Positions 1 to 64,000 of a DNA stretch of 64,000 bases are shown in pieces. Each line of letters opens with the position of its first letter. The first letter of the stretch is position 1. Under the pieces are notes generated by a model. The model did not search any database, had not been told where the DNA came from, and was given only the letters and a program-made list of their open reading frames with translations. The DNA comes from Escherichia phage ph0011, in the sequence record OP557969.1, one strand, 5' to 3'. The position numbers were made by a program, and so were the translations under genes.

Positions 1-2
1 TG

Positions 3-212
3 CATTTCAAGTACCAAGATGAAGAGGCAGACAATTATCCTTTACCTAATTTAGTACAAATACAGGAAGAGGAATTATTCCAGTACAGTTTAGTATACGA
101 CATTGATATTTGCACGATGCCAGTATTAATTAATATACAAAAAGTGATGCTCGATATGTATGATAAGCTAATACAAGGTATGTCAGGGAGGATCATTGAA
201 ATCGATATATAA
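3..212 (+). CDS. FamA (FQxS) paralog, 5'-truncated by window edge
   Basis: Frame 3 open from window start, stop 210-212; core EEELFQYSLVYD. Confidence 0.6.
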   Translation, partial: HFKYQDEEADNYPLPNLVQIQEEELFQYSLVYDIDICTMPVLINIQKVMLDMYDKLIQGMSGRIIEIDI

Positions 213-408
213 GAATTTACCTAATGCATATATGTTGAAGTACAAAGAGTTTATTAAAGATGTATATGTAGATCCTTTCAATATAAAATTATCAGAGTTC
301 GATGTATTATTTTATCTAGGGACAATAGTACAGGACCAATACGTTAATAATCTAATAAGGTGTTTGAAAAAGGAGATACAATGCAGACCCAAATGTACAA
401 AAAAATAA
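196..408 (+). CDS. small hypothetical protein, FamB (LFYLGT)
   Basis: TTG start 5 nt after GGGAGG; core LSEFDVLFYLGTIVQDQ; paralogs at 381, 11717, 11913. Confidence 0.55.
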   Translation: MKSIYKNLPNAYMLKYKEFIKDVYVDPFNIKLSEFDVLFYLGTIVQDQYVNNLIRCLKKEIQCRPKCTKK

Positions 409-644
409 ACCGTTATTTGTATGCATCAAAGTACAGGGATTTTTGTTTACAAGGAGGTGAGGACGATTTCGGTCTGAGGTTATCGGAATTTAATATGTTA
501 TTTTATCTTGGTACATCCGTACAAGAAGAAATGGTTCAGAAATTTCTCAATAACCTTGTACAAAAAATTAATATTCAAATTATGATGCATAAATTACAGA
601 ATGAGATAAATGAATATGAATCTAGAAATAGTTCAGGATCTTAA
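381..644 (+). CDS. small hypothetical protein, FamB (LFYLGT)
   Basis: ATG 5 nt after AGGAG (track ORF 360..644); core LSEFNMLFYLGTSVQEE. Confidence 0.6.
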   Translation: MQTQMYKKINRYLYASKYRDFCLQGGEDDFGLRLSEFNMLFYLGTSVQEEMVQKFLNNLVQKINIQIMMHKLQNEINEYESRNSSGS

Positions 645-1005
645 AAAAGTAATATTTCTTTTGAATACAAGAAGCTCTTTATATAAGGAGTTCAAAGATA
701 AGGATAGTTCTTTTAAACCAGTATGTATAGAATTCAATGATTTAATTACAGATGCATTGTTTGAATTTTCCGAGAAATATCAAGATACAGTGTTTGGTGT
801 TAGGAATGCTATTCATCCAATTACAGGCACAAGGAAGATAACGTTATCTCATTTTACATTTGACAATAAAGATTTATTCAGTTATAATCCCAGTACATCT
901 TTATATTTTATTCCAAAAGGAGACAAGAATAGTCCGATTCATTACGGATGGATTATATCTTATGTAGTGCAAGGAAAGGAGTATCCTATCAAATGGCACG
1001 ATTAG
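610..1005 (+). CDS. hypothetical protein, possibly decayed FamA member
   Basis: 131-aa ORF; N-terminal helix LEIVQDLKKVIFLL like FamA N-termini; no intact F-Q core. Confidence 0.45.
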   Translation: MNMNLEIVQDLKKVIFLLNTRSSLYKEFKDKDSSFKPVCIEFNDLITDALFEFSEKYQDTVFGVRNAIHPITGTRKITLSHFTFDNKDLFSYNPSTSLYFIPKGDKNSPIHYGWIISYVVQGKEYPIKWHD

Positions 1006-1145
1006 GACAGGAAGATTATAGTTTAAATATATTATTAAGAAATATTAATGCGGATTATTGTGTATGGGTTAAGAATCGAGACATGATGTATTATGATTTT
1101 TATTTAGATTATGCCATCAAACGCTTTTTAAGAGAAGAATATTAA
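948..1145 (+). pseudogene. possible frameshifted 3' part of 610..1005
   Basis: Overlaps upstream ORF by 58 nt in another frame; QEDYSLNILL resembles a FamA core lacking F-Q. Confidence 0.3.
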
Positions 1146-1321
1146 TGAAAGTGGTTAATACAAAAGCAATAAATGATTTAAATGATTCTTTATTAGTAAG
1201 TATTAAGTTGTATTATAATATTCATTTAAAGGGTGGTATTAACGATTTTAGTTATTACTTAAGTGCAATATCACAAGAGCATTTAAATTATCAAGATCAT
1301 TTATTACATCCAAATCATTAA
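1145..1321 (+). CDS. small hypothetical protein (58 aa)
   Basis: Hand-translated ORF below track cutoff; TAATG overlap with upstream stop; fills gap before 1330. Confidence 0.3.
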   Translation: MKVVNTKAINDLNDSLLVSIKLYYNIHLKGGINDFSYYLSAISQEHLNYQDHLLHPNH

Positions 1322-1329
1322 GGCAAATT

Positions 1330-1890
1330 ATGAATGAGATAGAGTTATTATCACACAAGATTAGTACAATAGCTACAGTACTGAACAACAAAAATAAAGT
1401 ACATAGTTCCTTTTTAAGAATTAATAAAGTTGGTAGTAGTTTATATTTGGAAGTAAAAGCGGGTTTTGCAGGACAGTACAATGATAAAATCAAAGAAGAA
1501 GTTAAGGGAAATGAAGATGCTTTCATTGAGGTTTGTGCAACAGTTGGTTCAAATCCAATTTCAGTATCACCGTTAATGCGAAATGAAAATTCAGAATTTG
1601 ATTCCAGTTTCGAAGGTTATTTGTGGTACAATTATGGTGATAATTATTTTATATATCAGAATTCCAAAACGAATTATAGTGAAGAAGGTATAAAATTCAT
1701 TGATCCTTACAATGAAGCAGAAGTATTTCAGAAATCCCTAATATACAATACAAATCAAATGAAGTATCTTATGTTGTTTAGTACAATGCATTTGAATCCA
1801 TTGAAAGATAATTTAAAATTTTTCATTCGTTTAGAATTAGTTGATATTACTTATGATCTTTTAATCCAAGGAAGTAGTTATGAAGTATAA
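1330..1890 (+). CDS. FamA (FQxS) paralog
   Basis: 186-aa ORF; core EAEVFQKSLIYNTN. Confidence 0.75.
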   Translation: MNEIELLSHKISTIATVLNNKNKVHSSFLRINKVGSSLYLEVKAGFAGQYNDKIKEEVKGNEDAFIEVCATVGSNPISVSPLMRNENSEFDSSFEGYLWYNYGDNYFIYQNSKTNYSEEGIKFIDPYNEAEVFQKSLIYNTNQMKYLMLFSTMHLNPLKDNLKFFIRLELVDITYDLLIQGSSYEV

Positions 1891-3031: not shown

Positions 3032-3033
3032 GT

Positions 3034-3636: not shown

Positions 3637-4241
3637 ACATAGACCAATTAATGAAGTACAGTAAAAGTACAGTTCCAGTACTAAGTAAAGTGTTAGATGC
3701 CTTCACTGCTAAGTACCCTGAAGGTTCAGAGTTAAATATTCCTTTTACTACACCAGGGATTGATGATACTTACATGGTACACATTGGTAGTTCAGGTATT
3801 GTTTTGAAGCAAAAGTACAGTGATAGTGAATATTATGGTTTGAAACTGGATAAAATTTCAGGAGAGAAGACACCTTTTGAGTTTTGGATTCCGAATAGTA
3901 TTGAATCATGGAATACACATATTAATAAGAGAGACGAAGGTAATATTTCTCTTGTAAATTATAAGGAAAAAAGATTTGACGTATTTTATTATTACAGTAC
4001 AGATACGTTTCCAGAAGAGATTTATTTAAATTCAGAGATGTATGAAGATATTGAATCATTTTTCTTTCAGTTATCATTGGTACATGATATCATGCCATTG
4101 CAAGCGTTCAGGGATGAAATAAATTTAGCGAAAGAGATTTCGGATATGTTACCTGAATTTAGTGTTCTTTATGGTAGTAGAGCTTTACCTGAAAATGTGT
4201 ATATAGAATTTATTTCTTGTGTTCAAGGATTGAATATATAA
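3633..4241 (+). CDS. FamA (FQxS) paralog
   Basis: ATGA overlap; core IESFFFQLSLVHD. Confidence 0.75.
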   Translation: MNIDQLMKYSKSTVPVLSKVLDAFTAKYPEGSELNIPFTTPGIDDTYMVHIGSSGIVLKQKYSDSEYYGLKLDKISGEKTPFEFWIPNSIESWNTHINKRDEGNISLVNYKEKRFDVFYYYSTDTFPEEIYLNSEMYEDIESFFFQLSLVHDIMPLQAFRDEINLAKEISDMLPEFSVLYGSRALPENVYIEFISCVQGLNI

Positions 4242-6427: not shown

Positions 6428-6567
6428 AGACGTTTCGTATGATGTATTCAAACGTACAATAAAACAATACTATATAACTTTTTATAATTGATATTTTTTA
6501 AAAAATACACAATCACAACGTGCTCCTTTTATTGGAATTTACCTTATTAATTATAGTTGAGGGGAAG

Positions 6568-6945
6568 ATGGAAATGAAATATAAAGATTTTCATATAGGG
6601 ACATGGATGTACACTGGTGAGTTTATTACGTGCTGTAATTTATACAAGCGTGATTTAAACTACTCAAGGGAGAAGGTTATAAAGTTCGCAGATTCACAAT
6701 TTTATTTTATGGAGTTAAGTACTGGAATTCGTGTTAAATCAACCGTTATGCTGGATTATACAGTTCTGGATGAGGCACAATTATTTCAGGAGTCATTAGT
6801 ATTTGATAAGAAGTACAACTGTACATTAGAAGAGATAGTTGAAATCCAGCGTAGGATCAAATTTATTCACAAGGATTGTATCGATAAATGGTGTAAAACT
6901 GGTGAAACTAATTTTAGTAATTATTTCAATCTAGGGGAAGAGTGA
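6568..6945 (+). CDS. FamA paralog, short FDKKY subclass
   Basis: ATG after GAGGGGA (track 6520..); CCNL.K.D; core DEAQLFQESLVFDKKY. Confidence 0.8.
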   Translation: MEMKYKDFHIGTWMYTGEFITCCNLYKRDLNYSREKVIKFADSQFYFMELSTGIRVKSTVMLDYTVLDEAQLFQESLVFDKKYNCTLEEIVEIQRRIKFIHKDCIDKWCKTGETNFSNYFNLGEE

Positions 6946-7301
6946 TGGAATTTGATTTTGTAATATCAGTACATTCTTTCAAGAATAGTTTTCAGTACTT
7001 TTGTAATTTAAACAAAGGTGATTTAATGCACAGTGCAAATGAGTATATTCATTACACTGCTGGTAAATTTACATTTATTGATTACGATTCATTACAGTAT
7101 CCACATCAGGATATGCCGGACTTTACATTAATGGATGAGGCCGAACTATTCCAAGCTGCATTAGTATTCGATAAGAAGTACTTGTGTACACTAGAAGAAG
7201 TAATTGCCATACAAAATGAAATAAAAGAGTATGCTGCTTTGAATAAATCCAATGTAAGTATTAATCAAGAATACAAATTCAATATAGGAATTACAGAATG
7301 A
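6945..7301 (+). CDS. FamA paralog, short FDKKY subclass
   Basis: TGATG overlap; core DEAELFQAALVFDKKYLCTLEEV. Confidence 0.8.
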   Translation: MEFDFVISVHSFKNSFQYFCNLNKGDLMHSANEYIHYTAGKFTFIDYDSLQYPHQDMPDFTLMDEAELFQAALVFDKKYLCTLEEVIAIQNEIKEYAALNKSNVSINQEYKFNIGITE

Positions 7302-7663
7302 CATTTGATTATTCGATATACGTTTGCAAGTCCAGAACGGGGTGGGATTTGTGCTGTAATCTTGTCAAGGGTGACTCGGAACATGAGTTGAGTTTATATA
7401 TTCAGTACTCGGATTTGTGTTTTAATTTTATTGATGTATTGTATGATGACTTCGACTATAACTCTGAAAGTATTACAGATTATACAGTACTGGATGATGC
7501 TGAACTATTTCAAGCTTCTTTGGTGTTTGACAAGAATAAGTACTCATGTACAATAGAAGATATGATTTTTATACAAAATGAAATGAAGAGATATGTCAAA
7601 GAAAACACCTTTGATACATCTACACCAACAACAAGTAATTATTATTTCAATACAGGTGAGTAA
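7298..7663 (+). CDS. FamA paralog, short FDKKY subclass
   Basis: ATGA overlap; core DDAELFQASLVFDKNKY. Confidence 0.8.
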   Translation: MTFDYSIYVCKSRTGWDLCCNLVKGDSEHELSLYIQYSDLCFNFIDVLYDDFDYNSESITDYTVLDDAELFQASLVFDKNKYSCTIEDMIFIQNEMKRYVKENTFDTSTPTTSNYYFNTGE

Positions 7664-7664
7664 T

Positions 7665-8006
7665 ATGGAATATGATTTTTCTATTTATATGCCTATAATT
7701 AGTTCACAAGATGTGTATTGTAATCTTAATAAAGGTGATTACGAACACAAAATGGATCAGTACATTAAATTTAATGGTGCGTACTTTAGCTTCATTGATT
7801 ATCAGGCCAAAGGATCAGTTGTAGAAAATATGAAAGACTATACAACAGTACATGGTGAGGCTGAAATATTTCAAGAGTCATTAATATTCGACAAGAAGTA
7901 CTTGTGTACTCTAGAGGAAGTAATTGAACTCCAACAGAAGATGAAAGAATATAGAAGAATCTACACAGAGACTGGTTCCAAAGATAGGTATCGTTTTAAG
8001 CTATGA
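7665..8006 (+). CDS. FamA paralog, short FDKKY subclass
   Basis: ATG after AGGTGAG (track 7593..); core GEAEIFQESLIFDKKYLCTLEEV. Confidence 0.8.
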   Translation: MEYDFSIYMPIISSQDVYCNLNKGDYEHKMDQYIKFNGAYFSFIDYQAKGSVVENMKDYTTVHGEAEIFQESLIFDKKYLCTLEEVIELQQKMKEYRRIYTETGSKDRYRFKL

Positions 8007-8189: not shown

Positions 8190-8660
8190 ATGAGTTTTGA
8201 AAGAGCATTAGAAATTGCTAAGTTAATTGATGTATGTAAAAAAGAAATAGTGCTCAACAGACTCAATGGGTATCTATTCAAGGAAGGTAAATCTTATTGC
8301 CGAATGATATACGATGACAGTAGTGAATATATTCACATGTATGAAGAAAATCTTGATGAATCTGAAACAACACTCACTGGGTGTGATGTTAATCTGGAAG
8401 ATAATTACATGTACTTCTGTCGTGATGCTGATATTTTAATACAAGAAACATCATATCAAACTGGGAATCCAGAGGTATATCTTCCATATTCAGTACTGGA
8501 TAATGACTGGGGAAGTGAAGAGTTCTACTTCCAGCAGAATACTATCTACGATGAAGATGTACTTGACAAGCTTGTCATTCTGTGGTACTTTAAGAACACT
8601 GATACTCCTAACTTCTATATAGATTTGGATCTACTAAGAGTTATTAATGAGGATATATGA
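8190..8660 (+). CDS. FamA paralog, ~150-aa SALE/WYFK subclass
   Basis: N-term MSFERALEIAKLI; core SEEFYFQQNTIYDEDVLD; WYFK. Confidence 0.8.
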   Translation: MSFERALEIAKLIDVCKKEIVLNRLNGYLFKEGKSYCRMIYDDSSEYIHMYEENLDESETTLTGCDVNLEDNYMYFCRDADILIQETSYQTGNPEVYLPYSVLDNDWGSEEFYFQQNTIYDEDVLDKLVILWYFKNTDTPNFYIDLDLLRVINEDI

Positions 8661-9097
8661 GTTTAGTAAGTGCACTTGAACTGGCACACAAAATACACAA
8701 CTTCCATGATAAAATAAAAAGTGGGTTTTATGGTGATAACGTAAGTGAATTTGGTAATGAGTATTATCTATCAAGTTCAAATACATACGCTGATGATATT
8801 TTACTTATGGGTCATGATAAAGACAATACTATACAGTACTCTTCATGTAGTCAATATGCTAGTTTTATGGTATATATTCCAGGAACTAAGATTACTTTTG
8901 ACACATCAAATACACCTGTTGACTTCGGGGTACTTGATGGTCCATGGGGTACTGAAGAGTATTACTTCCAACAGAGTCTTATTTTTAGCCAAGAGATGCT
9001 TGATACCTTGGTTGTGTTGTGGTACTTTAAAGAATTGAATTTTGAACCATTCTTTCTTGACTGGGGAGCATGTGAGTATTTAAGTTCAGGAGAATAA
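8657..9097 (+). CDS. FamA paralog, ~150-aa SALE/WYFK subclass
   Basis: ATGA overlap; MSLVSALELAHKI; TEEYYFQQSLIFSQEMLD; WYFK. Confidence 0.8.
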   Translation: MSLVSALELAHKIHNFHDKIKSGFYGDNVSEFGNEYYLSSSNTYADDILLMGHDKDNTIQYSSCSQYASFMVYIPGTKITFDTSNTPVDFGVLDGPWGTEEYYFQQSLIFSQEMLDTLVVLWYFKELNFEPFFLDWGACEYLSSGE

Positions 9098-9099
9098 TA

Positions 9100-9567
9100 A
9101 TGTCATTGCGAAGTGCATTGAAAGAAGCAAAGAAGATCCATAATTACATGATTATGGTACAAGAAGGTTCCGTGCCTGGTGTATATAAAACATCTGATAC
9201 TGAATTTTTCGTAAAAGATCGAGATGATTATGATGAGTCAGAGATATGTGCAGAAACGTTAGTACTGCACATTGATACGGATGATACTGATGACTGTGAA
9301 TATCAGATGCACAATCAATACCTTAGTTATTATAGGGATGAAGATATTATAATTTACACTCCTGATTACGATGATGATAACATAATCATTCCGTATTCAG
9401 TTCTGGAAGGTCCATGGGATAGTGAAGAATATTATTTCCAGCAAAGTACTGTGTATAATGAAGATGTTTTAGATGTTATTGTAATTATGTGGTACTTTAA
9501 AAGTATTGATTCTGACAGTTTCTATTTCGATTATGAATACGTAGAGAATACTGTAGGGGGAAGATAA
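9100..9567 (+). CDS. FamA paralog, ~150-aa SALE/WYFK subclass
   Basis: MSLRSALKEAKKI; SEEYYFQQSTVYNEDVLD; WYFKSID. Confidence 0.8.
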   Translation: MSLRSALKEAKKIHNYMIMVQEGSVPGVYKTSDTEFFVKDRDDYDESEICAETLVLHIDTDDTDDCEYQMHNQYLSYYRDEDIIIYTPDYDDDNIIIPYSVLEGPWDSEEYYFQQSTVYNEDVLDVIVIMWYFKSIDSDSFYFDYEYVENTVGGR

Positions 9568-10010
9568 TGTCATTACAAAGTGCTCTTGAAAAAGCAAAAG
9601 AACTTCATGCATATATTGAAGATATTAAGGCTGGGAAGTTCGAAGAAATATACAAAGCCGAGAATGGTAACTACTACAAGGATAGTGATTTTGCTACAAC
9701 TACAGTTATTCTTGGGTTGAATTCCAAAAGTCCAGTAGACTTTTCTCAATACAATCCAGATGCAGAATTTATTAGTTATGCTTATGGTGGCGAAATCCGT
9801 TTTTATAATCGCAGCAGACCTTTAAAATTGAACTTTGAAGTACTGAAAGGTCCGTGGGATAGTGAAGAGTACTACTTCCAGAATAGAACTTTGTATGATG
9901 ATGAAGTTCTAGATACTTTAGTTATTATGTGGTACTTTAAAAGTATTGATAGTACAAGATTTTATTTGGATTATGAATATGTACGTGAAGTTTATAAGGG
10001 TAAACGATGA
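9567..10010 (+). CDS. FamA paralog, ~150-aa SALE/WYFK subclass
   Basis: TAATG overlap; MSLQSALEKAKEL; SEEYYFQNRTLYDDEVLD; WYFKSID. Confidence 0.8.
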   Translation: MSLQSALEKAKELHAYIEDIKAGKFEEIYKAENGNYYKDSDFATTTVILGLNSKSPVDFSQYNPDAEFISYAYGGEIRFYNRSRPLKLNFEVLKGPWDSEEYYFQNRTLYDDEVLDTLVIMWYFKSIDSTRFYLDYEYVREVYKGKR

Positions 10011-10321: not shown

Positions 10322-10764
10322 TGTACGAAAGTGATCTTAAGCACGCTGAAGAATTAGTTAATATAGTAAAGTTCTTTCAAAATAATGTAAAGTACTTAGA
10401 CTATAAAGGGGCTTATATTAGTACTATAAGTGTTGGTACAGATATTCTAGGATTAGGCAATGAATATAAGTACGAGTCCCATGATTATGACTTGGAATTC
10501 AAGTACTTCGTATGGGATTCTGGAACTTTCTATTCTATAGATGAAGATGGCAAATATTTTGAATTCACAGAAGAAGAAGTTCTATTCTTAAATTCAGAAG
10601 ATGCTTACTTTCAATATAGTACTATATACCCAAACGCGGCGTTAAGAGCTTTAGTAGTTTTTAATGCATTTCTGAAAGAGAACTTTAACAATTCTATATT
10701 CATTGATTTAGATTATGTATATGAACTAAATCAGGTGATATATATGGAGTCCAGAAAAGAATGA
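10321..10764 (+). CDS. FamA paralog
   Basis: TAATG overlap; MYESDLKHAEELV; core SEDAYFQYSTIYPN. Confidence 0.75.
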   Translation: MYESDLKHAEELVNIVKFFQNNVKYLDYKGAYISTISVGTDILGLGNEYKYESHDYDLEFKYFVWDSGTFYSIDEDGKYFEFTEEEVLFLNSEDAYFQYSTIYPNAALRALVVFNAFLKENFNNSIFIDLDYVYELNQVIYMESRKE

Positions 10765-11216
10765 GTTATGAAAGTGCACTAAAAAAGGCTAATGATATTC
10801 TACGCGTTGTTCAGTTCTTAAAGGACTATCCTGTTTATGTAGATGATGAACGCAGAGAAGTTTCTAATGGCACGAAGATTACAATTGATTCTTTATTTGA
10901 CACTAGCAGCAACAACTGTAGTACTATTGAATTAGCATACGATTATATTTCATTGAACAGAAAATATGATGAAGTTACGATAGAGCGTCATGAGGATGAA
11001 GAATCTTTTAAAATTTCTGATATTTTATCCCTGAGTACTGAAGAAGGGTACTTCCAGGGAAGTACTCTTTATAATGAAGAAACACTTGACAATCTATGTA
11101 CATTTAGTGTACTATATCAGAAGTCAGTACTGGATATATTTTATCTAGACACTGAAAAACTTGATAGGTTAGTTGATTTCGTTACTATAGAAGAGGCATC
11201 CTTTGAGAAAAATTAA
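10761..11216 (+). CDS. FamA paralog
   Basis: ATGA overlap; MSYESALKKANDI; core TEEGYFQGSTLYNEETLD. Confidence 0.75.
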   Translation: MSYESALKKANDILRVVQFLKDYPVYVDDERREVSNGTKITIDSLFDTSSNNCSTIELAYDYISLNRKYDEVTIERHEDEESFKISDILSLSTEEGYFQGSTLYNEETLDNLCTFSVLYQKSVLDIFYLDTEKLDRLVDFVTIEEASFEKN

Positions 11217-11739
11217 CATTAATGATTATGATGCATTACAAGATTTATCAAAAAAGATTCGCACTATCGTACCAGTACTGAAGAAATGCAGTACTGGATT
11301 AATCGATCCTAGTACAGTTATTAGTGAGAAGTACAATTTTCATAAACTGTTACAAGGGAATGGTGCATTCCAGAAGTGTGAGATACGTGAGACACACGTA
11401 ATTGATACATCATTGTTTTCTATTGGTGCACCTGTGTCGAATAATACTATTTTCCTAGACAACGCTGGAAATATTCAACAATTAACATTTAAGAAAAGGA
11501 AAAAGAACAATAACATTGGTGTGTATGCGATGAAGTGGGGTCAACCTGATTTGAAGCGTGAAATTCACATCCCTAAGTACAATTACAATGCATTTGACGA
11601 ACAGTGTTTTCAACTATCGTGTACTGACCCTGACTATGCTATCATTCAGTTCTATATGGAATTGCAGATTGCATTTAACAGTAATTTGTATATTAACTTA
11701 TTGGCGATGAACATCGATGAAGTATTCAAAAACATTTAA
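11203..11739 (+). CDS. FamA paralog
   Basis: TTG start after GAAGAGG; core FDEQCFQLSCTDPD. Confidence 0.65.
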   Translation: MRKININDYDALQDLSKKIRTIVPVLKKCSTGLIDPSTVISEKYNFHKLLQGNGAFQKCEIRETHVIDTSLFSIGAPVSNNTIFLDNAGNIQQLTFKKRKKNNNIGVYAMKWGQPDLKREIHIPKYNYNAFDEQCFQLSCTDPDYAIIQFYMELQIAFNSNLYINLLAMNIDEVFKNI

Positions 11740-12104: not shown

Positions 12105-12648
12105 GCTTGACTTAGCATTTGAACGTGTAAAAATCTTCATTGAAACTTATCTTATGCACAAAACTATATTGAAAACAAAAGGAATATGGTTCACTGATAA
12201 ATTTCTTACTATGGCTAAGAGAGATGGAATGGAACATCTTTACTGTACAGATAGTGCCAGAATTTCAGTACTGAATTATGATGAAAGTGTATCATCTGGT
12301 ACTAGTTTAATTTCGACATATAATGATAATATTACTAGTATTATGTATACTAAAAATTGTTCAAATGTTTCTGTATATAAAAACTGTGATAGTTCATTAT
12401 CGTACAATATCGATCAGTACTTTTATCCTAATACAGAAGAAAACATCTTTCAAAATAGTCTTATATTGGATGATACATCTAATAAATGTATATATCTTTA
12501 TAATAAATTAAAAGAGTACATTGATAACAGTTCAATTAGAACTAATACATTCAGTGTTTCTGTTTTAAATTATAATAAGGAAGATGTGTTTTATTATACA
12601 GAAATTGAAAGAATACATACAATGTATAAGGAACTACTATGTTATTAA
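12094..12648 (+). CDS. FamA paralog
   Basis: ATG after AAGGA (track 12052..); ELDLAFERVKIF; core TEENIFQNSLILDD. Confidence 0.7.
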   Translation: MYNELDLAFERVKIFIETYLMHKTILKTKGIWFTDKFLTMAKRDGMEHLYCTDSARISVLNYDESVSSGTSLISTYNDNITSIMYTKNCSNVSVYKNCDSSLSYNIDQYFYPNTEENIFQNSLILDDTSNKCIYLYNKLKEYIDNSSIRTNTFSVSVLNYNKEDVFYYTEIERIHTMYKELLCY

Positions 12649-13241
12649 ATGCAAATAAATGTTGTAGTGCTGATGTTCATGTATATTTTAAGAAATTAGT
12701 CAATGATATCATCTATATGCAAGAAATCATTTATCACAAAAGAATGGACTTAGAAAAAGCATTAGCTCAGTTCTCTTTTAATCTAGATGGTGATATATCT
12801 TTAGATGGTGATGGGTTACGTATAACATTAGACAGCAATTCCAATAGAGTTTTCTTTTGGATAGATAATAAATTATGTTCCTCAATTTGTCGCACTTTTT
12901 ATAACCCTATTTCGGACTTGTATCAATTGGTTTATTCGAAAGGTGCGGTTGAAGCATCATATGGTGATAGTTTTGCACTAGGGAAGTCCATTCCATATAT
13001 GCAAACATTTGATATTGAATTAGTCAGTACTGATGAAGATGTAATGTTCACAAATGATCTAACGATGCAGCGTGAATCTGCAATGAGATATATAACAAAT
13101 TCAATGCATACCTTCTTTAAAATAGCAGAATTTGATAATGTATATATATCAAATGTAAATATTTTCACTGACTTGTGTCAGTTTTTGAGAAATATTTTTG
13201 ATTTTGATGAAAGATATTCTAAGTTTTATACTGAGGTTTAA
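12639..13241 (+). CDS. FamA-like, decayed core
   Basis: 200-aa ORF; DEDVMFTNDLTMQ at the expected position. Confidence 0.6.
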   Translation: MLLNANKCCSADVHVYFKKLVNDIIYMQEIIYHKRMDLEKALAQFSFNLDGDISLDGDGLRITLDSNSNRVFFWIDNKLCSSICRTFYNPISDLYQLVYSKGAVEASYGDSFALGKSIPYMQTFDIELVSTDEDVMFTNDLTMQRESAMRYITNSMHTFFKIAEFDNVYISNVNIFTDLCQFLRNIFDFDERYSKFYTEV

Positions 13242-13246: not shown

Positions 13247-13606
13247 ATGAATACCATTAGTATTACGTACTACACAACTAAAAAATACGTTTGTTGTTTA
13301 CTTTCTTTGAAGACTAATGATGATATGTTCAATAATGTGGCATATACATTAGAATTGTCAGAAGATGGTTTTCAATGTCATGAAGCATACTCAAATACAC
13401 GTGAAGATACAATTGATACTACGCTCATGCAAGAGGATGAATTATTTCAAGAAAGTTTAGTATGGGATAAAAAGTACTATTGTGATTTTGATTTTCTATG
13501 TTTAATCCAGAAAGAAATGAAAAGGATCTTCGACAATTATCCAGTGAAGAGATTAAGTTCTGGACCAGAGCAGTACAGGAGGATGATATTCCGATATGAA
13601 GACTAG
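13247..13606 (+). CDS. FamA paralog, short subclass
   Basis: core QEDELFQESLVWDKKYY. Confidence 0.75.
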   Translation: MNTISITYYTTKKYVCCLLSLKTNDDMFNNVAYTLELSEDGFQCHEAYSNTREDTIDTTLMQEDELFQESLVWDKKYYCDFDFLCLIQKEMKRIFDNYPVKRLSSGPEQYRRMIFRYED

Positions 13607-13931
13607 ATTAGTAAAAGTAATGTATGCTACACATATTAAACTACTTCTTGTGAAATTTGATTATAATAAAAAACACAATGAGTTTTATACTTTAATTCGT
13701 AATGAAGAATCATTTTCATTGAGATGTAATAATATACCAATGAAAATAAACGATTACACCACATTAGATGAGGGAGAACTATTCCAAGAATCATTAGTTA
13801 TTGATAGTAATATAAAAATAGATATAGAAATTATTAAGCAGTACCAGACGTTATTAAACAAAATTATGAATTGTTATCCCTGTAGAATAGAAGGTAATAT
13901 GCAATTTAAATCGAAAATGTACGAGTTGTGA
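13596..13931 (+). CDS. FamA paralog, short subclass
   Basis: core DEGELFQESLVIDS. Confidence 0.75.
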   Translation: MKTRLVKVMYATHIKLLLVKFDYNKKHNEFYTLIRNEESFSLRCNNIPMKINDYTTLDEGELFQESLVIDSNIKIDIEIIKQYQTLLNKIMNCYPCRIEGNMQFKSKMYEL

Positions 13932-15475: not shown

Positions 15476-15827
15476 GAAAACAATTCAGTACATCACTGAT
15501 GGCAATGAATACTTTGCTTCAAGATATGAATTCAGTGAGGGTCATTTCGTAACTTATATACCTGAATATAATCAGTTTTATCTCCAGATTTACCAAAAAG
15601 ATTCCAATATAAATGAATTATATACCGAAATAAAAATCCCAGATTATAGTACTTTATCAGAAGAGGAATTGTTTCAGGAGAGCACGATCAGTACTGAAGA
15701 TGTATACGAACTAATTGAATATCAGAAGGTACTTAAATATTTCCATAAATCACATGATATAGAAATGGATATGGTTAAACCGTGGCGTTATAATACATAT
15801 GAGGTAAATTATGTTAGAAATGATTAA
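15465..15827 (+). CDS. FamA paralog, short subclass
   Basis: core SEEELFQESTISTED. Confidence 0.75.
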   Translation: MQNKKTIQYITDGNEYFASRYEFSEGHFVTYIPEYNQFYLQIYQKDSNINELYTEIKIPDYSTLSEEELFQESTISTEDVYELIEYQKVLKYFHKSHDIEMDMVKPWRYNTYEVNYVRND

Positions 15828-50662: not shown

Positions 50663-51454
50663 ATGAAATTTGTCGTAACATCTGATGTACACGGTAGTAC
50701 TGATTACCTCCATAGTGGGGATTACAGCGATACAGTACTGATTATTGCGGGAGACTTCGATGAAGTTAAACGAAGTCGTTATCGTACTGGTATTGAATCA
50801 CTGTGTAAGCAGTTCAAGAATGTAGTTCTGGTTCCAGGAAACCATGAGTATTATGGTTCAAACATTCACAAAACGCATCGAGTACTGTCCGATATGCAAG
50901 ATGAGATTCCAAATTTCATCTTTTTGCAAAACAAATTTGTATGGCTGGATGGTGTACTGCTCGTTGGTAGCACACTATGGACTGACTTTGATAAAGGCAA
51001 TGCACTGGTTAAGTTTGATGCTCAACAAAAGATGAATGATTATAAACACATTCGTCATGGAACAACATCAGAACCGTGGAAACGTAAACTCAAACCTGAT
51101 GATGTTGAGTTCATGCATTATCAGGATAAACAATTTATCAAAAATTCAGTTGATACAGTTCGTCTAATGAATGATAATGATATCAAGGTTGTGGTGGTAA
51201 CACATCATGCACCAAGTTATCAGAGTGTATCTCCGAGATACAAGAATGACTCACTGAATGGATGTTATTGTTCTGATATGGACCAGTACATCGAAGATTT
51301 GGGTGCTGATGTTTGGATTCATGGTCACGTTCATAGTAGCTTTGACTACCACATTGGTAAGACACGTATCATTTGTAATCCACGAGGCTATGAATCGTAC
51401 AGTGGTGCTTGTGAGAATTTTGATTACAATCCAAAATTTGTAGTTGAAATCTAA
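50663..51454 (+). CDS. calcineurin-like metallophosphoesterase
   Basis: ATG after GGAGG (track 50651..); SDVHGS, AGDFDE, GNHEYYG, VVTHHAP, GHVH. Confidence 0.8.
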   Translation: MKFVVTSDVHGSTDYLHSGDYSDTVLIIAGDFDEVKRSRYRTGIESLCKQFKNVVLVPGNHEYYGSNIHKTHRVLSDMQDEIPNFIFLQNKFVWLDGVLLVGSTLWTDFDKGNALVKFDAQQKMNDYKHIRHGTTSEPWKRKLKPDDVEFMHYQDKQFIKNSVDTVRLMNDNDIKVVVVTHHAPSYQSVSPRYKNDSLNGCYCSDMDQYIEDLGADVWIHGHVHSSFDYHIGKTRIICNPRGYESYSGACENFDYNPKFVVEI

Positions 51455-53875: not shown

Positions 53876-54400
53876 ATGAAATATACACAACTAAACAACA
53901 ATGATACTAATATATGGTTAGGAAATATATCTAAAACACTTGAATTGGTTAAATTCACACTACAAAAATCGGTCGATATTGAAATTAATATTAAGAAAGA
54001 AATATTAAAACATTATCATAAAAATAAATTTTACAAGTTTATTTCTAAATTAATCTATGGGTTATATGATATTGAAGATATTTGTATTGGGTACAGTACT
54101 GGTATTTGTTTCACTACTGATGGTATAATGAATGATTTAAATTTTCGACTAACCCGCGAAGAACAAGATTTTCGTATATTTTGTGATAATATCATGAATG
54201 AAGATAAAATCCAATTTGTGATTGAATTGAGTCAGATATGGTCTGTATATGCAGACAAACCATTCGAAATTAATGAATCAGATATATTAAACTATATTCG
54301 AATAATGAAAATTCATGATTTATGTAAAAACGCATTACTAAGTATTGGAGCCTATGATGAAGCATACGACGTGGTTAAAGATAGCAGAAGTGGTTGCTGA
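53876..54400 (+). CDS. hypothetical protein
   Basis: AGAGGA RBS; 174 aa. Confidence 0.6.
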   Translation: MKYTQLNNNDTNIWLGNISKTLELVKFTLQKSVDIEINIKKEILKHYHKNKFYKFISKLIYGLYDIEDICIGYSTGICFTTDGIMNDLNFRLTREEQDFRIFCDNIMNEDKIQFVIELSQIWSVYADKPFEINESDILNYIRIMKIHDLCKNALLSIGAYDEAYDVVKDSRSGC

Positions 54401-55356: not shown

Positions 55357-58029
55357 TTAAGCACTGATTGTTACAGTTGCAGTATCTTTTTTATTACCAT
55401 CCACTGTAGTCACTGTAATGATTACAGAACCTTCTTCTAGAGCAGTTACTAATCCATCATCACTAATAGATACTTTAGTAGGTTTATCTGCACTATAAGT
55501 TACTGATTTGTTAGTTGCTTTAGCTGGTAGAACTTCTGGAACTAGTTGAACTGTTTTAGTTCCTGATAGTGAAAGTTCAGTAGTTTTAGGTGTTAAACTA
55601 ACACTGGATACTGGAACTGGAATATTAACGATTACTGATGTTTGACCAGTAACATCACTACCATCAGCGGCAGTAGCGATAATATTTGCAGTACCATTAG
55701 TTAGTGCAGTTACGATACCAGTATTAGCATCTACTTTAGCAATTTCTGGAGCACTGGATGACCAAATTACATTTTTATTGGTTGCATCACTTGGGGTAAT
55801 TGCAGCAGCCATTTGTTTAGTTGCATTCAATGTAGTCAAAGTTTGATCTTTAGGAGTTACATCAATTGCAGTTACTGGCACTGGAATATTAACAGTAATA
55901 ACACCTTGACCTGTTTTACCACTTCCATCAGCAGCAGTTGCGATAATGTTTGCAGAACCGTTAGTTAACGCAGTTACAACACCAGTACTAGCATCTACTT
56001 TCGCTACAGCAGGTTTACTGGAAGACCATGTTACAGATTTATTTGTTGCGTTAGTTGGAAGAACTTCAGCAGCCATTGCTTGAGTTGCGTTAACAGCAGT
56101 CAATGTTTTAGTTGCTGGAGTAACATTAATAGATGCGACTGGAACTGGAATTGCTACAGTTACCGCACATTTTGCAGTTTTTGCTCCATCAGCAGTTGTT
56201 ACTGTGATATCAGCAGTGCCATTTGCTACAGCAGTGATTAAACCAGTTGGACTAACAGTTGCCACTCCATCAGCAGAAGTACTATAAGTTACTGCTTTGT
56301 TGGTAGCATTAGGTGGTAGTACAGTTGGTGTTAGTTGTTGAGTATCACCGACTGAAGTTAATTTAGCACTTGTTGGAGATACTGATACACTTGCAACAGG
56401 AACTGGAATGTTAACAGTTACCACGCAAACTTTAGAAAATCCACCATCAGATGTGGTTGCTGTAATATTTGCAGTACCGTTTGCAACAGCAGTGATTAAA
56501 CCAGTTGGACTTACCGTTGCGACACCCTCAGCAGAAGTAGTGTATGAAATATCTTTACGACGAGCGTTATCTGGAATAACAGATGCAGTTAGTTGTTGAG
56601 TAGCACCTACAGAAGTTAGGGTTGCTGTCAACGGAGTCATATTAATTCCAGTTACTGGGATCGTTACATCAATCACTGATTCAGCAGTTTTAGCACCATC
56701 ATCAGTGGTAACAGTAATAGTTGTAGTACCGTTATCAACCGAAGTTACTAGACCAGTATTACTAACTTTTGCTACGTCTGGATATGAAGAAACATATGAA
56801 ACTGCTTTATTGGATGCAGTTGCAGGAGCAACGGTTGTTTCTAATTGTTTAGTATCACCTAATGTTGAGAATGTATAAGTACTAGGAGTCATTGTGACAC
56901 CAGATACTGGTGTTTTCACTGTGATTGTAGTAGTGTCCGTTTTAGCACCATCTTCGGTTGTAGCTGTAATCACCACTGTGCCGTTAGCCACACCAGTTAC
57001 TAGACCAGAAGTAGGGTTAACAGTTGCTATATCAGGTGTTGCTGAAGACCACGTGACGTTTTTATTAGTTGCATCATCAGGAGATATTGTAGCAGTTAAT
57101 TGTTGAGTACTGCCAACGTTAATTGATGCAGTTTTAGGAGAAACAACAACACCACTAACTGGAGTTGTTACAGTAACAGTACATTTTGAAACAAATGAAC
57201 CATCAACTGTAGTTGCAATTACATCAGTACTGCCATCTGCAATACCAGTTACCATACCAGTTGGACTTACAGTTGCGAAGCGTGGTATACTGGATGACCA
57301 AATAACACTTTTATCACTTGCATCATCGGGTGATACGGTAGCTGTTAGTTGATGAGTTTTACCAACACCAAGAGATAGAGTTGAAGGAGAAACAACAACA
57401 CCACTAACTGGAGTTGTTACAGTAAATGCACAAACATCGGTGAAACCACCATCATGAGTAGTAACTGTTACATTTGCATTACCATTAGCACGGGCAATTG
57501 CTAAACCAGTTTGAGCATCAACTTCAACTATTGTTGGAGCAGAGGAACTATAACTTACTGTTGGATCATTTGCATAATCTGGATTAATTGTAGCTGATAG
57601 TTGTTGTGTGCTACCAACTTTAAGTGCTACTACTTTGGGTGAAATAATAACACCATTAACTGGTGTAGTATAATCACGTTTAACCACACGACCATTGTTC
57701 AATTTAATAATACGACCCATATAAAGAGTAGCATATCCCTTACTAATCCCATCATCTACATAAATCATAAATGAATTGTCTTGAACCATATTAATTGCGT
57801 CTACTGGCTTAACAGTATTTGGAATGTCGATACCACGGGTATCATACCAACACATGGAAACTTTGTAATATATATCACCATTATCATTGATGAGATCATA
57901 CACGTTACTGGAACGTTGACGGTTAATATATAAAGTTTCGGTTAATACCTTACCATCGATTTTAGCGACAGAAACTTTAATACCACCAATACCAAATGGC
58001 AATTTACCTTCACTAGATATTGCTTTCAT
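55357..58029 (-). CDS. Ig-like (Big_2) repeat virion-surface/adhesin-type protein
   Basis: 890 aa; ~121-aa N-domain then 9 repeats starting (T/I)PV..V..P....L..G.TQQL..; AAAGGAAAG RBS; only minus-strand gene. Confidence 0.8.
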   Translation of the reverse strand: MKAISSEGKLPFGIGGIKVSVAKIDGKVLTETLYINRQRSSNVYDLINDNGDIYYKVSMCWYDTRGIDIPNTVKPVDAINMVQDNSFMIYVDDGISKGYATLYMGRIIKLNNGRVVKRDYTTPVNGVIISPKVVALKVGSTQQLSATINPDYANDPTVSYSSSAPTIVEVDAQTGLAIARANGNANVTVTTHDGGFTDVCAFTVTTPVSGVVVSPSTLSLGVGKTHQLTATVSPDDASDKSVIWSSSIPRFATVSPTGMVTGIADGSTDVIATTVDGSFVSKCTVTVTTPVSGVVVSPKTASINVGSTQQLTATISPDDATNKNVTWSSATPDIATVNPTSGLVTGVANGTVVITATTEDGAKTDTTTITVKTPVSGVTMTPSTYTFSTLGDTKQLETTVAPATASNKAVSYVSSYPDVAKVSNTGLVTSVDNGTTTITVTTDDGAKTAESVIDVTIPVTGINMTPLTATLTSVGATQQLTASVIPDNARRKDISYTTSAEGVATVSPTGLITAVANGTANITATTSDGGFSKVCVVTVNIPVPVASVSVSPTSAKLTSVGDTQQLTPTVLPPNATNKAVTYSTSADGVATVSPTGLITAVANGTADITVTTADGAKTAKCAVTVAIPVPVASINVTPATKTLTAVNATQAMAAEVLPTNATNKSVTWSSSKPAVAKVDASTGVVTALTNGSANIIATAADGSGKTGQGVITVNIPVPVTAIDVTPKDQTLTTLNATKQMAAAITPSDATNKNVIWSSSAPEIAKVDANTGIVTALTNGTANIIATAADGSDVTGQTSVIVNIPVPVSSVSLTPKTTELSLSGTKTVQLVPEVLPAKATNKSVTYSADKPTKVSISDDGLVTALEEGSVIITVTTVDGNKKDTATVTISA
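55360..57666 (-). repeat. 9 tandem ~255-270-bp coding repeats (Big_2 domains)
   Basis: Adjacent units near-identical at DNA level, e.g. 56210-56280 vs 56470-56540 (..cagcagtgattaaaccagttggac..). Confidence 0.75.
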
Positions 58030-58329: not shown

Positions 58330-58935
58330 ATGAAACTATTCTTGAAAGAGATTGTACAAACCGTTGTTTTAATCGCTGCATTAAATTTTCCAGCAGCGGC
58401 AGAAGTTTCAAAAAAAGCATCTGTTCTTCTATTAAATGAACAGGTTGTATCAATGGATGGTGAACTAAATGATAATACGGTACAAGAAGTAGAGCAGTTG
58501 TGGAAAGAAAAAAGATTTAAAATTTTAACAATTACATCACCTGGGGGTGATTTTGATGCTGGTATTAAAATGGCAAATTTTGTTAGAGACAATGGTATAA
58601 ATTTAATTGTTTCTAAATATTGCAATTCGGCATGTACTGTGGTATTCTTTAGTGTATCCCCAGAAAAGCGATATATGACAAATCAATCAGTACTGGGATT
58701 GCATAATATTTCAATCAAAAGTAACGTTAAAGATATGGATCATACTTTCGTATCTGTTAGACAACTATCATCATTTACTGAAGAAATGGCAACAAAAGTA
58801 GGATTTTTATTTACACTATATTCAGCTAATGGTATTCCACCTAGCATTCTATATAAAGTTAGTCGTTCACGTGGTGAAGATGTTGTTATCTTAACAAAAA
58901 CAGACCTAATAAATTACGGTTCAGTCAATCCATGA
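58330..58935 (+). CDS. secreted ClpP/NfeD-fold serine-protease-like protein
   Basis: Signal peptide ..VVLIAALNFPAAAE; ITSPGGDFDAG, CNSACTV, GLHNIS resemble the ClpP-class layout. Confidence 0.55.
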   Translation: MKLFLKEIVQTVVLIAALNFPAAAEVSKKASVLLLNEQVVSMDGELNDNTVQEVEQLWKEKRFKILTITSPGGDFDAGIKMANFVRDNGINLIVSKYCNSACTVVFFSVSPEKRYMTNQSVLGLHNISIKSNVKDMDHTFVSVRQLSSFTEEMATKVGFLFTLYSANGIPPSILYKVSRSRGEDVVILTKTDLINYGSVNP

Positions 58936-62052: not shown

Positions 62053-62070
62053 ACAATTCAAGGATGTTTT

Positions 62071-63510
62071 ATGAAAAAATATACAATTGACACAAACGTA
62101 CTACTATCTGATCCAAATGCATCTGTTGCTTTTGATGGTGCTGCAATCATTCTACCATTTACAGTACTGGAAGAATTGGATTCGATTAAGAGTCGCAATG
62201 TTGATGTTTCACGTGATGCTCGTGTTGCGATTCGTAACATTGAAGCAATTATTGCAGAGGCATCACATAATGAGATTAGTTGTACTGGTGTTAATATTGC
62301 TGATGTTCATACCAATATGAGTCCTGAAAGCAAATTGTTTGTTATTACAAACGAAGAAGCTGAAGCACTAATTCGTACTAAGGCAATTGAAGATAAAGTT
62401 CAAACACTTCTCAAAAGTTCTGTACCAGATGATAAAATTATCTTAGTCGCTTTAGCAACTGATTCAGTACTGGTTACCCGTGATATCAATATGCGTATCA
62501 AGGCTCTTAGTTATGGAGTTGAAGTACAGGATTATCGTCATGATGTGGTTATCGGTGATAGCGATCTAATGCACGTAGGTCAACATCATCTCGATATCGA
62601 TTTCTGGGCAGAATTCAGTGGGATTGAAAATGCTGAAATTAAATCTGAAAAAACAGGTCGCCGCCTGTATCATTATATCCCAACACATCTAATCAAAGAT
62701 CTTCTTCCACAAAATCTTTGTATTGGTGACTATCTATATGATAATGCTGATGTGCTCTTTGTTTACGAAGGTCAGTCTGCAATCGAAGAAGATGATGGTA
62801 GTCTAACACCAGAAGATATTTTGGTCTTCCAAGATATTGGTCAATCTGTTGCATTACGTGCTAATGTATGGGATATTAAAGCTAAGAATGTCAAACAAGC
62901 ACTAGCTATTAATAGTATTCTCGATCCCGATGTACATCTAACAGTTCTACTAGGTTCTGCTGGGACAGGAAAAACACTAATTACGATTGCTACTGCACTA
63001 GAGTTAGTTCTGGAAAAACGTAAATACGACCGTATTATCTTCTCTAAAACACAAGATTCACAGTTTGAAGATATCGGATTCTTGCCTGGTTCAGAGGCCG
63101 AGAAAGTGATTCCATTTTGTGGTCCAGCGATTGACGCACTAGAGTACCTACATAAAGATGATGCAAATCCACAAGGTAGCATTGAGGAAATCATGAAACG
63201 TAATGTTATCCAGTTCAAAGCATTGAACTTTATTCGTGGTCGTTCTTTTGCCAATACAATTCTAATTGTGGATGAAGCACAGAACTTAACACCAGCCCAG
63301 CTAAAAACTGTCTTGACAAGAGCCGGAGAAAACTGTAAAGTAATCATACTTGGTAACCTAGCACAGATCGATAACAAGTTTATCAGTCCAGTAAACAGCG
63401 GTCTAACTTATGTAACTGAGAAATTTAAAAATTGGTCTGGTTGTCGTATCATTGAATTGGAAGGTGTTGTTCGTTCACCACTTGCTGAATTTGCTGAAGA
63501 AAATATGTAA
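62071..63510 (+). CDS. phoH: PIN-domain PhoH-like ATPase
   Basis: N-term PIN-like (YTIDTNVLL..), Walker A GSAGTGKT, Walker B IVDEAQN; 479 aa. Confidence 0.85.
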   Translation: MKKYTIDTNVLLSDPNASVAFDGAAIILPFTVLEELDSIKSRNVDVSRDARVAIRNIEAIIAEASHNEISCTGVNIADVHTNMSPESKLFVITNEEAEALIRTKAIEDKVQTLLKSSVPDDKIILVALATDSVLVTRDINMRIKALSYGVEVQDYRHDVVIGDSDLMHVGQHHLDIDFWAEFSGIENAEIKSEKTGRRLYHYIPTHLIKDLLPQNLCIGDYLYDNADVLFVYEGQSAIEEDDGSLTPEDILVFQDIGQSVALRANVWDIKAKNVKQALAINSILDPDVHLTVLLGSAGTGKTLITIATALELVLEKRKYDRIIFSKTQDSQFEDIGFLPGSEAEKVIPFCGPAIDALEYLHKDDANPQGSIEEIMKRNVIQFKALNFIRGRSFANTILIVDEAQNLTPAQLKTVLTRAGENCKVIILGNLAQIDNKFISPVNSGLTYVTEKFKNWSGCRIIELEGVVRSPLAEFAEENM

Positions 63511-63514
63511 TATT

Positions 63515-63547
63515 GTATGGGACAATATGTCCCATACATGATATAAT
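63515..63547 (+). promoter_or_regulatory. early-type promoter whose -35 lies inside a 9-bp hairpin
   Basis: GTATGGGAC-aatat-GTCCCATAC (63515-63537); TGGGAC - 18 nt - TATAAT (63542-63547). Confidence 0.55.
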
Positions 63548-63579
63548 GCTGTTATCATAATACAGAAGGAGATAGTAAA

Positions 63580-63768
63580 ATGGCTAAACAACCTAAGAAA
63601 AAAGAACCAGTAGCTAAAGTTAAAAAAGCAAAAGTTATTACATCCACAGAACAACGTATGTACGAACAACGTAAGAGTGAAACACTTTCTGGTCTACAAG
63701 CTCTTCGCAAACAAGGAGTCCTAACTCGTGCACAATATCGTAAGTTGGTAACACAAAAAGGTTATTGA
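63580..63768 (+). CDS. small basic hypothetical protein
   Basis: GAAGGAG RBS; MAKQPKKKEPVAKVKKAK..; 62 aa. Confidence 0.6.
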   Translation: MAKQPKKKEPVAKVKKAKVITSTEQRMYEQRKSETLSGLQALRKQGVLTRAQYRKLVTQKGY

Positions 63769-63870
63769 TACATTTGAAGTAATATTATGGGGTTCTTAAT
63801 AAATAACCTTATAAGAATAATAATACTTTTTATTAAATTAAAAAGAACTCCATGTGTTATTTCAGTTTTT

Positions 63871-63897
63871 ATCCCTGTCGGTTGGCAGGGATTTTTT
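63871..63897 (+). terminator. Rho-independent terminator
   Basis: atccctg-tcggttgg-cagggat then tttttt. Confidence 0.75.
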
Positions 63898-64000
63898 CTA
63901 TCTATGTATTGACAAAAGGATTAATTTATGAGAACATGTATAAAAGGCCGTATGACATTCCATTAGGTTAGTTTTTAACTTAAAGGAGATATATATGTTT

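Follow-up and report, generated by a model that had tools for sequence, protein, structure and literature searches.

A hyper-abundant palindrome with an AGTACT core in Escherichia phage ph0011 and RaK2-like jumbo phages

The 64,000-nucleotide stretch of Escherichia phage ph0011 analysed here (OP557969.1; the whole stretch is referred to as the window) raises the question of why the tetranucleotide GTAC is so common in it, and whether context-dependent codon choice, as an initial annotation of the sequence proposed, is the cause. The window contains 451 copies of GTAC. Base composition predicts 188, a first-order Markov model 191 and a maximal-order one 308, and in the scan of short words that the annotation had called for GTAC ranks first in over-representation among all 256 tetramers. 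The enrichment, which had been described as several-fold, is real and its size is 2.4-fold relative to composition; one copy is expected per ~340 nt, rather than per ~300 nt as estimated at first, and one is observed per 142 nt. The partial tallies given there (10 copies in 1–660 and six in 3655–3820) are exact. The observation is thus confirmed and sharpened, and its interpretation is in part supported.

The enriched unit is a nested palindrome

Codon choice around GTAC does depend on context. Tyrosine is encoded by TAC in 53% of cases after a G-ending codon and in 29–36% otherwise (Fisher p=1e-10), as had been claimed, and serine before threonine is AGT in 67% of cases versus 32% elsewhere, with AGT followed by ACT in 66 of 95 cases. 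The use of GTA for valine before C, put forward as a third example, amounts to a marginal rise only (42%, with 28–45% before other bases), and of the positions cited for tyrosine 10502 is indeed AAG-TAC, whereas 7187 and 7907 in the frame of their open reading frames (ORFs) are TGT-ACA and TGT-ACT (Cys-Thr). The TAC preference is limited to a preceding AG (TAC:TAT 82:39) and is not seen after TG (31:68), which hints at a word longer than GTAC.

The flanks of GTAC are strongly skewed. The base on the 5′ side is A in 59% of copies and the base on the 3′ side is A or T in 88%, and AGTACT and AGTACA together make up 236 of the 451 copies, which the initial annotation had overlooked. GTAC with other flanks is merely ~1.5x enriched, and GGTACC and CGTACG have no copies in the window. 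AGTACT is present in 143 copies with 21.4 expected by composition (6.7x), and is by far the top six-base palindrome, the runner-up being GTGCAC with 14 copies (2.9x). The octamer CAGTACTG is present in 35 copies, with 0.55 expected by composition (63x) or 0.77 in dinucleotide shuffles (45x), the largest shuffled count being 5. GTAC, AGTACT and CAGTACTG therefore form a nested palindromic series (451, 143 and 35 copies). Beyond the octamer the flanks are weaker, T-rich on one side and A-rich on the other, and (TT)CAGTACTG(AA) is the longer form preferred by this phage and its nearest relatives.

Changes at different positions of the octamer have very different effects. Variants altered at the outermost base (NAGTACTG and CAGTACTN) are still 9–12x enriched, while almost all one-base changes inside the hexamer core reduce the ratio to 0–3x, and the excess is lost; CAGTTCTG (9.9x) and CAGTAGTG (5.4x) are partial exceptions, and AGTTCT itself is enriched 2.9x in the window. 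A hyper-abundant palindrome with an AGTACT core thus underlies the GTAC excess, and the view of GTAC as the enriched unit is not borne out, its excess reflecting that of AGTACT and CAGTACTG.

AGTACT is a signal on duplex DNA

Two null models were applied to the coding sequence: a synonymous-codon shuffle within each gene, which keeps both the protein sequence and codon usage, and a codon permutation, which keeps composition alone. The greedy gene set used here does not include the listed ORF 48011–49213. Coding AGTACT sites number 135, with 41.7 expected from the synonymous shuffle (z=16.5) and 23.4 from codon permutation (z=24.9), and are distributed over the three frames as 66, 35 and 34 with nulls of 20, 9.5 and 12 (2.9–3.7x each). 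Coding copies of CAGTACTG number 33, with 2.3 and 0.8 expected under the same two models. The 4.7 kb of intergenic DNA contains nine AGTACT sites where 1.55 are expected (5.8-fold; P=4e-5), and the minus-strand gene at 55357–58029 contains five where 0.9 are expected; because this gene is equally enriched, the excess is independent of the direction of transcription. AGTACT is therefore a signal on duplex DNA that is indifferent to frame, gene orientation and coding status.

The motif is accommodated both by synonymous choice (~3-fold) and by the choice or order of amino acids (~2-fold). The proposal that GTAC is created by synonymous choice is accordingly right as to the context-dependent codons, although part of the excess rides on amino-acid order, and codon choice as the cause does not survive the finding of an equal excess across three frames, a minus-strand gene and intergenic DNA. 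As the signal acts at the level of DNA, context-dependent codon usage is a consequence of the motif and not its reason. A translational codon-pair bias with GTAC as its by-product, which is the literal form of the initial proposal, has in its favour that codon choice does vary with the neighbouring codon. Such a bias would be confined to coding sequence and to particular codon pairs in one frame, whereas all three frames and non-coding DNA are enriched here, ~3-fold in frames that involve the unrelated codon pairs AGT-ACT, xAG-TAC-Txx and xxA-GTA-CTx and 5.8-fold outside of genes; the explanation is refuted by this pattern and carries next to no weight.

With about 90% of the genes on one strand, a palindrome alone cannot separate a signal in DNA from one in RNA, in which AGUACU in mRNA would act in processing, stability or translation. 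A few non-palindromic neighbours of the motif are also higher on the sense strand, AGTACA being at 1.63x and TGTACT at 1.05x, and AGTTCT at 2.14x and AGAACT at 1.36x. These asymmetries, however, follow from whether a given single change is synonymous or conservative, and under codon-aware nulls the reverse-complement half-sites are matched (CAGTAC 3.46x and GTACTG 3.17x; AGTAC 2.01x and GTACT 1.99x), as are those of seven bases (AGTACTG 5.8x and CAGTACT 6.3x). Intergenic DNA and the minus-strand gene are equally enriched, no positional bias of AGTACT within genes was found in the window, and a role at the RNA level is very improbable.

AGTACT sites have a mean spacing of 430 bp with a Poisson-like distribution (coefficient of variation 1.04; Kolmogorov-Smirnov test against the exponential, p=0.57), and no helical phasing or periodicity was found in the short pair distances of the window. 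Repeats and paralogs were also considered as a source of the sites and rejected, the excess still being 6.6x when two five-member families of paralogous ORFs are excluded.

The excess follows a phage lineage and travels with the absence of GCGC

Relatives were sampled as regions of ~25–40 kb and Escherichia coli K-12 as 50 kb, and the values given here are ratios of observed to expected AGTACT. Four orthologous regions of Asteriusvirus phages have ratios of 8.4 (Turkey3), 8.0 (121Q), 7.9 (PBECO4) and 6.2 (UE-S1). The excess is likewise present in Erwinia phage pEa_SNUABM_50, an Eneladusvirus in which AAGTACTT is the favoured octamer (9.6), Klebsiella phage RaK2 (7.1, with 13 copies of CAGTACTG versus 0.2 expected), Cronobacter phage GAP32 (6.4), and the RaK2-like Xanthomonas phage XaC1, which has 32% G+C (11.3). 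In contrast, Pseudomonas phage PA5oct is at 0.12 and Xanthomonas phage XacN1 at 0, and the comparison with host and T4 that the initial annotation recommended gives 0.26 for E. coli K-12 and 0.5 for T4, in which GTAC itself is at 0.43. The trait thus follows the phage lineage and not the host. The hexamer core is constant across the lineage while the preferred flanks drift, and the density is 2.1–3.8 AGTACT sites per kb in five divergent lineages versus 0.06 per kb in the E. coli sample; per kb, sites are ~37-fold commoner in the phage DNA sampled than in that of E. coli. A scan of IMG/VR with the DNA ligase for wider sampling yielded only 121Q itself and one unrelated contig.

The XaC1 sample (OR258281.1, 38025–62534) has a RaK2-like gene order and no GCGC. 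Its recorded host is Xanthomonas vesicatoria, and the host assignment or range may be worth a second look.

GCGC is absent from the window, where 43 copies are expected by composition and 16 by a maximal-order Markov model, and from 288 kb that include every motif-bearing phage sample, where ~204 are expected by composition. It occurs 342 times in the 50 kb of E. coli (6.8 per kb) and has a normal frequency in PA5oct and T4. Lack of GCGC goes together with the excess of AGTACT, and points to a nuclease specific for GCGC that is either phage-encoded or widespread in hosts. Among the 32 six-base palindromes with at least four G/C, 28 have zero copies in the window (summed expectation ~107 by composition), and those present are GTGCAC (14 copies, 2.9x), CACGTG (8), CCATGG (3) and ACGCGT (1); GATC, AGCT, CTAG and GGCC are at ~0.5x. 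The GTAC excess is thus opposite to the palindrome avoidance that prevails in the same DNA, as had been supposed.

A host factor could in principle favour the hexamer, with the phage sites acting as decoys or in host manipulation. The nucleoid-occlusion protein SlmA recognizes the 12-bp site GTGAGTACTCAC, which has AGTACT at its centre, and needs G1, T2, A4 and G5 with a purine at position 3 (PMC3020112). The resemblance extends beyond the identical central hexamer to the palindromic symmetry, with SlmA binding as a dimer, and most of the motif-bearing phages infect Enterobacterales. However, the flanks that SlmA requires differ from those that the phage favours, the phage motif preferring T at position 1 and C at position 3, and XaC1, recorded as a Xanthomonas phage, has the trait, all of which makes a host-factor explanation scarcely tenable. 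SlmA decoy sites as such were looked for and rejected, as GTRAGYRCTYAC has no match in the window with up to one mismatch.

HIP1 is the closest known phenomenon

The closest known phenomenon is HIP1, a cyanobacterial palindrome (GCGATCGC) that is nested (GATC within CGATCG within GCGATCGC) and over-represented by tens to hundreds of fold in all frames (PMC4390886, PMC5861425). Methyltransferases recognise its nested sites, and copies that deviate by one base do so preferentially at the outer positions (PMC4390886). One study reads its conservation as a sign of selection (Xu, Lawrence & Durand 2018, PMC5861425), and the cause is still debated between selection and methylation-linked repair (Elhai 2015, PMC4390886; PMC5861425).

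The phage motif shares the statistical and structural properties that define HIP-type elements. CAGTACTG is a palindromic octamer in tens of fold excess that occurs between ORFs as well as within them in all frames, and its 35 copies, with 0.55 expected by composition, 0.77 in dinucleotide shuffles and 2.3 in the synonymous shuffle, correspond to the excess of at least ~15-fold that marks a HIP-type octamer. AGTACT likewise has a nested structure in which deviations at the first and last positions are tolerated around the inner hexamer core, is found in all frames as well as between ORFs and serves neither as a peptide nor as an RNA motif, and is lineage-wide with a varying extended form. The differences are that the phage sequence is another one with an A/T-rich centre, and that its carrier is a virus rather than a cellular chromosome; HIP1 proper, that is GCGATCGC in a cyanobacterium, is not what the window contains, and CGATCG has no copies in it. 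HIP1 has known orphan methyltransferases for its nested sites, whereas the phage motif has a candidate only. HIP1 shows a periodicity of 10–90 kb, whereas the phage motif is seen over 64 kb only, with Poisson-like spacing at short range, and conservation of its individual sites is less well supported than in HIP1.

Chi (GCTGGTGG), the DNA uptake sequences of Neisseria and Haemophilus, and KOPS are over-represented oligomers by which protein machines tell self DNA from foreign DNA. AGTACT resembles them in being short, in several-fold excess, tolerated in coding sequence and far denser in self DNA. However, these oligomers are asymmetric, with Chi and KOPS oriented to replication, whereas AGTACT is a perfect palindrome with symmetric half-sites and no strand orientation, and its reader is putative. 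The E. coli Chi octamer was itself considered as the signal and rejected, as only two copies are present in the window (29654–29661 on the minus strand and 39876–39883 on the plus strand; 0.24 expected from shuffles).

No report of the AGTACT excess was found in papers on RaK2-like phages or by full-text motif searches. It appears to be an unreported, lineage-wide, HIP-like palindrome of jumbo phages that is coupled to total avoidance of GCGC.

Maintenance and turnover of AGTACT sites

Pairwise orthologous alignments of the window with four relatives (83–89% identity) show that AGTACT is intact in 70.6% of cases versus 48.9% for all hexamers (p=2e-10), and that divergence at third codon positions inside AGTACT sites is about half of that outside. 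The Erwinia phage provides a more distant comparison, with proteins 49% identical on average and third positions close to saturation. Seven of 29 AGTACT positions (~24%) are shared with it, compared with 8.5% for hexamers in general and 0.09 sites expected if the positions were independent; the same aligned columns contain 29 sites in the window and 49 in the Erwinia phage. A history without gains would need ~200 ancestral sites in 15 kb, so sites must have kept arising in both lineages. AGTACT is thus maintained over the long term.

The commonest specific hexamer change in the polarised comparison is AGTACT to AGTTCT, which accounts for 13 of 29 polarised losses, while its mirror image, a change to AGAACT, is extremely rare. 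GTA has changed to GTT in 7 of 31 in-motif valine codons and in 11 of 179 elsewhere (p=0.008), and this synonymous change accounts for 8 of 13 sites at which the window has AGTTCT and both aligned relatives carry AGTACT (e.g. 9399, 9905, 13556, 15358, 17097, 20442, 21927, 23337, 40122, 43396, 62943 and 63006). As the changes cluster in the frame in which they are synonymous, they are probably real substitutions rather than base-calling errors. Sequencing error at a modified base is an unlikely source in any case, because the change is also inferred in UE-S1 and 121Q.

A putative reader of AGTACT and its alternatives

We propose, with a probability of roughly 55%, that a phage-encoded dimeric protein reads AGTACT and probably modifies it, and that the motif is dense because it marks the phage DNA. 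The analogy with HIP1 and the symmetry of the motif suggest that AGTACT is recognised by a putative DNA-binding or DNA-modifying dimer, and its high density would be kept since the sites mark phage DNA genome-wide. We infer that selection rather than a repair bias keeps the sites abundant, that a protein reads them, and that they are modified, the candidate modifier being a small N6-adenine methyltransferase encoded at 30403–30927. Modification would explain how hundreds of ScaI- and RsaI-type sites can be present in a genome purged of almost all G/C-containing palindromes.

The methyltransferase noted in the initial annotation is well founded. The ORF at 30403–30927 (plus strand; 174 aa) matches PF05869, the Dam-family N6-adenine methyltransferases (E=7e-33), and scores 95.9 bits with TIGR01712, just below the cut-off of 97.05. 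GTAC contains an adenine, but the protein is a candidate reader or modifier of AGTACT only. The gene is kept beside a cytidyltransferase gene in Asteriusvirus, Salmonella, Klebsiella, Erwinia and Yersinia jumbo phages and in XaC1, where four small ORFs lie between the two; in the window the cytidyltransferase-like ORF (30924–31457) overlaps the methyltransferase gene by four bases. Orthologs are found in the motif-bearing Asteriusvirus, RaK2/K64-1, Erwinia Eneladusvirus and XaC1 phages, and the next relatives are enzymes of the Lactococcus 936-group phages with ~41% identity. No relative was found in the PDB from which the specificity could be inferred. A second methyltransferase is annotated near the Dam gene in Sharanji; in the window, the ORFs that neighbour the methyltransferase gene gave nothing recognisable with Pfam, PHROGs or NCBIfam. 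RaK2 DNA has been reported to be cut by methylation-tolerant enzymes only and to carry methylated CpG (PMC3622015).

Several points weigh against the proposal of a protein that reads and marks AGTACT. The reader is putative, and GAP32, which bears the motif, is not among the lineages with a confirmed ortholog of the methyltransferase. The characterised members of PF05869, such as the Dam enzymes of T1 and Stx phages, methylate GATC, and given this specificity the candidate may be irrelevant to AGTACT. The published restriction digests of fEgEco12 include no enzyme with GTAC in its site, and the random spacing of AGTACT speaks against an architectural function for which sites would have to be regularly spaced. 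Signs of recent selection on individual sites are weak and vary with the method used: strict parsimony gives 29 polarised losses and six gains with an average gain rate, whereas a looser polarised count, which is confounded in that parallel losses can inflate gains, gives 34 gains and 29 losses with a gain rate up 3-fold (rank 5 of 1975 hexamers). Matched codons in and out of the motif do not differ significantly in their rates of change on polarised terminal branches (GTA 0.226/0.196, ACT 0.139/0.227, AGT 0.068/0.112 and TAC 0.16/0.188).

Some of these observations would also fit a phage-encoded mutational or repair drive, either methylation-linked mismatch repair of the very-short-patch type or another biased conversion process, that continually converts near-cognate sequences to AGTACT and for which the sites need have no function. 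Elhai's model of HIP1 is a precedent (PMC4390886). The matched-codon comparison reveals no significant protection of existing sites, and in the looser count the gain rates are raised for AGTACT, CAGTAC and GTACTG (ranks 5, 7 and 2 of 1975). A further precedent is the effect of Dcm and Vsr on CCWGG in E. coli, where very-short-patch repair leads to over-representation of a palindromic methylation site, as it would for AGTACT; the CCWGG excess is well under 2-fold and is accompanied by strong depletion of CTWGG and CCWAG. AGTACT, in contrast, is enriched 6–11-fold, far above the known effects of such repair, and no symmetric pair of one-base neighbours is depleted in the manner of a repair substrate, the deamination products AGTATT and AATACT being at 1.0 and 0.82. 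The amino-acid sequence is bent as well (nulls of 23 versus 42), such that a drive must overcome selection at the protein level, and positional sharing across genera is three times that of ordinary hexamers. On balance a repair drive is possible but doubtful.

The gene at 35297–36781 (plus strand; 494 aa) is a contrast case that bears on both explanations, having no AGTACT where ~3.3 are expected at window density (P=0.036). No Pfam, NCBIfam or Asteriusvirus counterpart was found for it, and among phage proteins it is closest to a ‘tail protein’ of an Stx2k prophage (56% amino-acid identity), with matches in Microbacterium and Thermus phages coming next. As it is missing from all of the Asteriusvirus relatives it is probably a recent insertion, and its lack of the motif counts for the marking of phage DNA by AGTACT, and also for the slow amelioration that a repair drive predicts.

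The sites could also be a relic, amplified in a common ancestor by a process that is now defunct and since then in neutral decay, chiefly from AGTACT to AGTTCT. The strict count, with its 29 losses and six gains and an ordinary loss rate (rank 87 of 184 frequent hexamers), agrees with decay, as do the similar rates of codon change in and out of the motif. Yet 2.1–3.8 sites per kb are held in five lineages even though the window and the Erwinia phage have only ~24% of positions in common, pure decay needs an implausible ancestral density of ~13 sites per kb, and the looser count is balanced (34 gains and 29 losses). A relic is quite improbable.

An extension of the proposed marking role takes in the absence of GCGC as well. 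RaK2-like jumbo phages may have a two-word code for self and host DNA, with AGTACT as the mark of self and GCGC as the target of a phage-encoded nuclease that destroys host DNA. The protein that reads, and probably modifies, AGTACT may then direct replication, recombination, packaging or protection, and the code may be a sequence-based equivalent of the modified-cytosine strategy of T4. This is speculative, and we consider it unlikely.

Positions of the octamer and other features of the window

The window has 32.5% G+C and ~133 called ORFs, mostly small, with 120 on the plus strand. Its nucleotide identity is 83–91% to Asteriusvirus phages 121Q, PBECO4, G17, Sharanji, Turkey3 and UE-S1, which are Escherichia jumbo phages of ~350 kb, and at this level of identity it represents a new relative and not a copy of any one of them. 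Recognisable genes include those for an RnlA RNA ligase, a polynucleotide kinase/phosphatase, an ATP-dependent DNA ligase, a Sir2-family protein, a PhoH-like protein and, on the minus strand, an 890-aa protein with Ig-like Big_2 repeats (55357–58029). A long array of ORFs of 100–200 aa contains two families of five paralogous small ORFs each, located at 6520–8006 and 13247–13931, and at 8190–10010 and 15005–15475, respectively; near-identical stretches in these regions are found at 7178–7195 and 7898–7915.

The copies of CAGTACTG are listed without strand because the site is a palindrome. In the left part of the window they are at 1376–1383 (within ORF 1330–1890), 7485–7492, 8491–8498 (ORF 8190–8660) and 11125–11132 (ORF 10761–11216). 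A pair at 11273–11280 and 11289–11296 has starts 16 bp apart and lies in different frames of ORF 11203–11739, and the copy at 12266–12273 has flanks that extend the palindrome to ttCAGTACTGaa. These are followed by copies at 13025–13032, 15689–15696, 20858–20865, 22323–22330 (frame 0), 25825–25832, 27624–27631 and 28878–28885. The methyltransferase ORF contains one at 30447–30454, and others are at 31052–31059, 31464–31471, 31816–31823, 32187–32194, 33069–33076, 34839–34846 (outside of called ORFs) and 38984–38991.

Further to the right, one copy is in the RNA ligase gene (40670–40677) and two are in the DNA ligase gene (49490–49497 and 50198–50205); between them are those at 43138–43145, 44727–44734, 47875–47882 and 48762–48769, the last within the listed ORF 48011–49213 that is outside the greedy gene set. 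The remaining copies are at 50733–50740, 54094–54101, 57225–57232 (in the minus-strand Ig-repeat gene), 58688–58695, and 62162–62169 and 62465–62472, both in the PhoH-like gene.

Implications for jumbo phages

Phages are known for avoiding short palindromes, and the RaK2-like lineage purges nearly all of them yet keeps one at 6–11 times its expected frequency. The AGTACT excess is older than the divergence of the RaK2-like genera. Together with the absence of GCGC it constitutes a compositional signature by which the lineage can be flagged in metagenomes, and which indicates how ScaI, RsaI and HhaI should behave in restriction typing. The motif also offers a second, independent and tractable system for the 30-year-old question of HIP1, as a 350-kb phage is far easier to recode and assay than a cyanobacterial chromosome. 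Should a phage protein prove to read or modify the sites, they would provide a handle on a genome-wide process in jumbo phages without a phage nucleus, with possible roles in self-marking, protection, or the initiation of replication or recombination.

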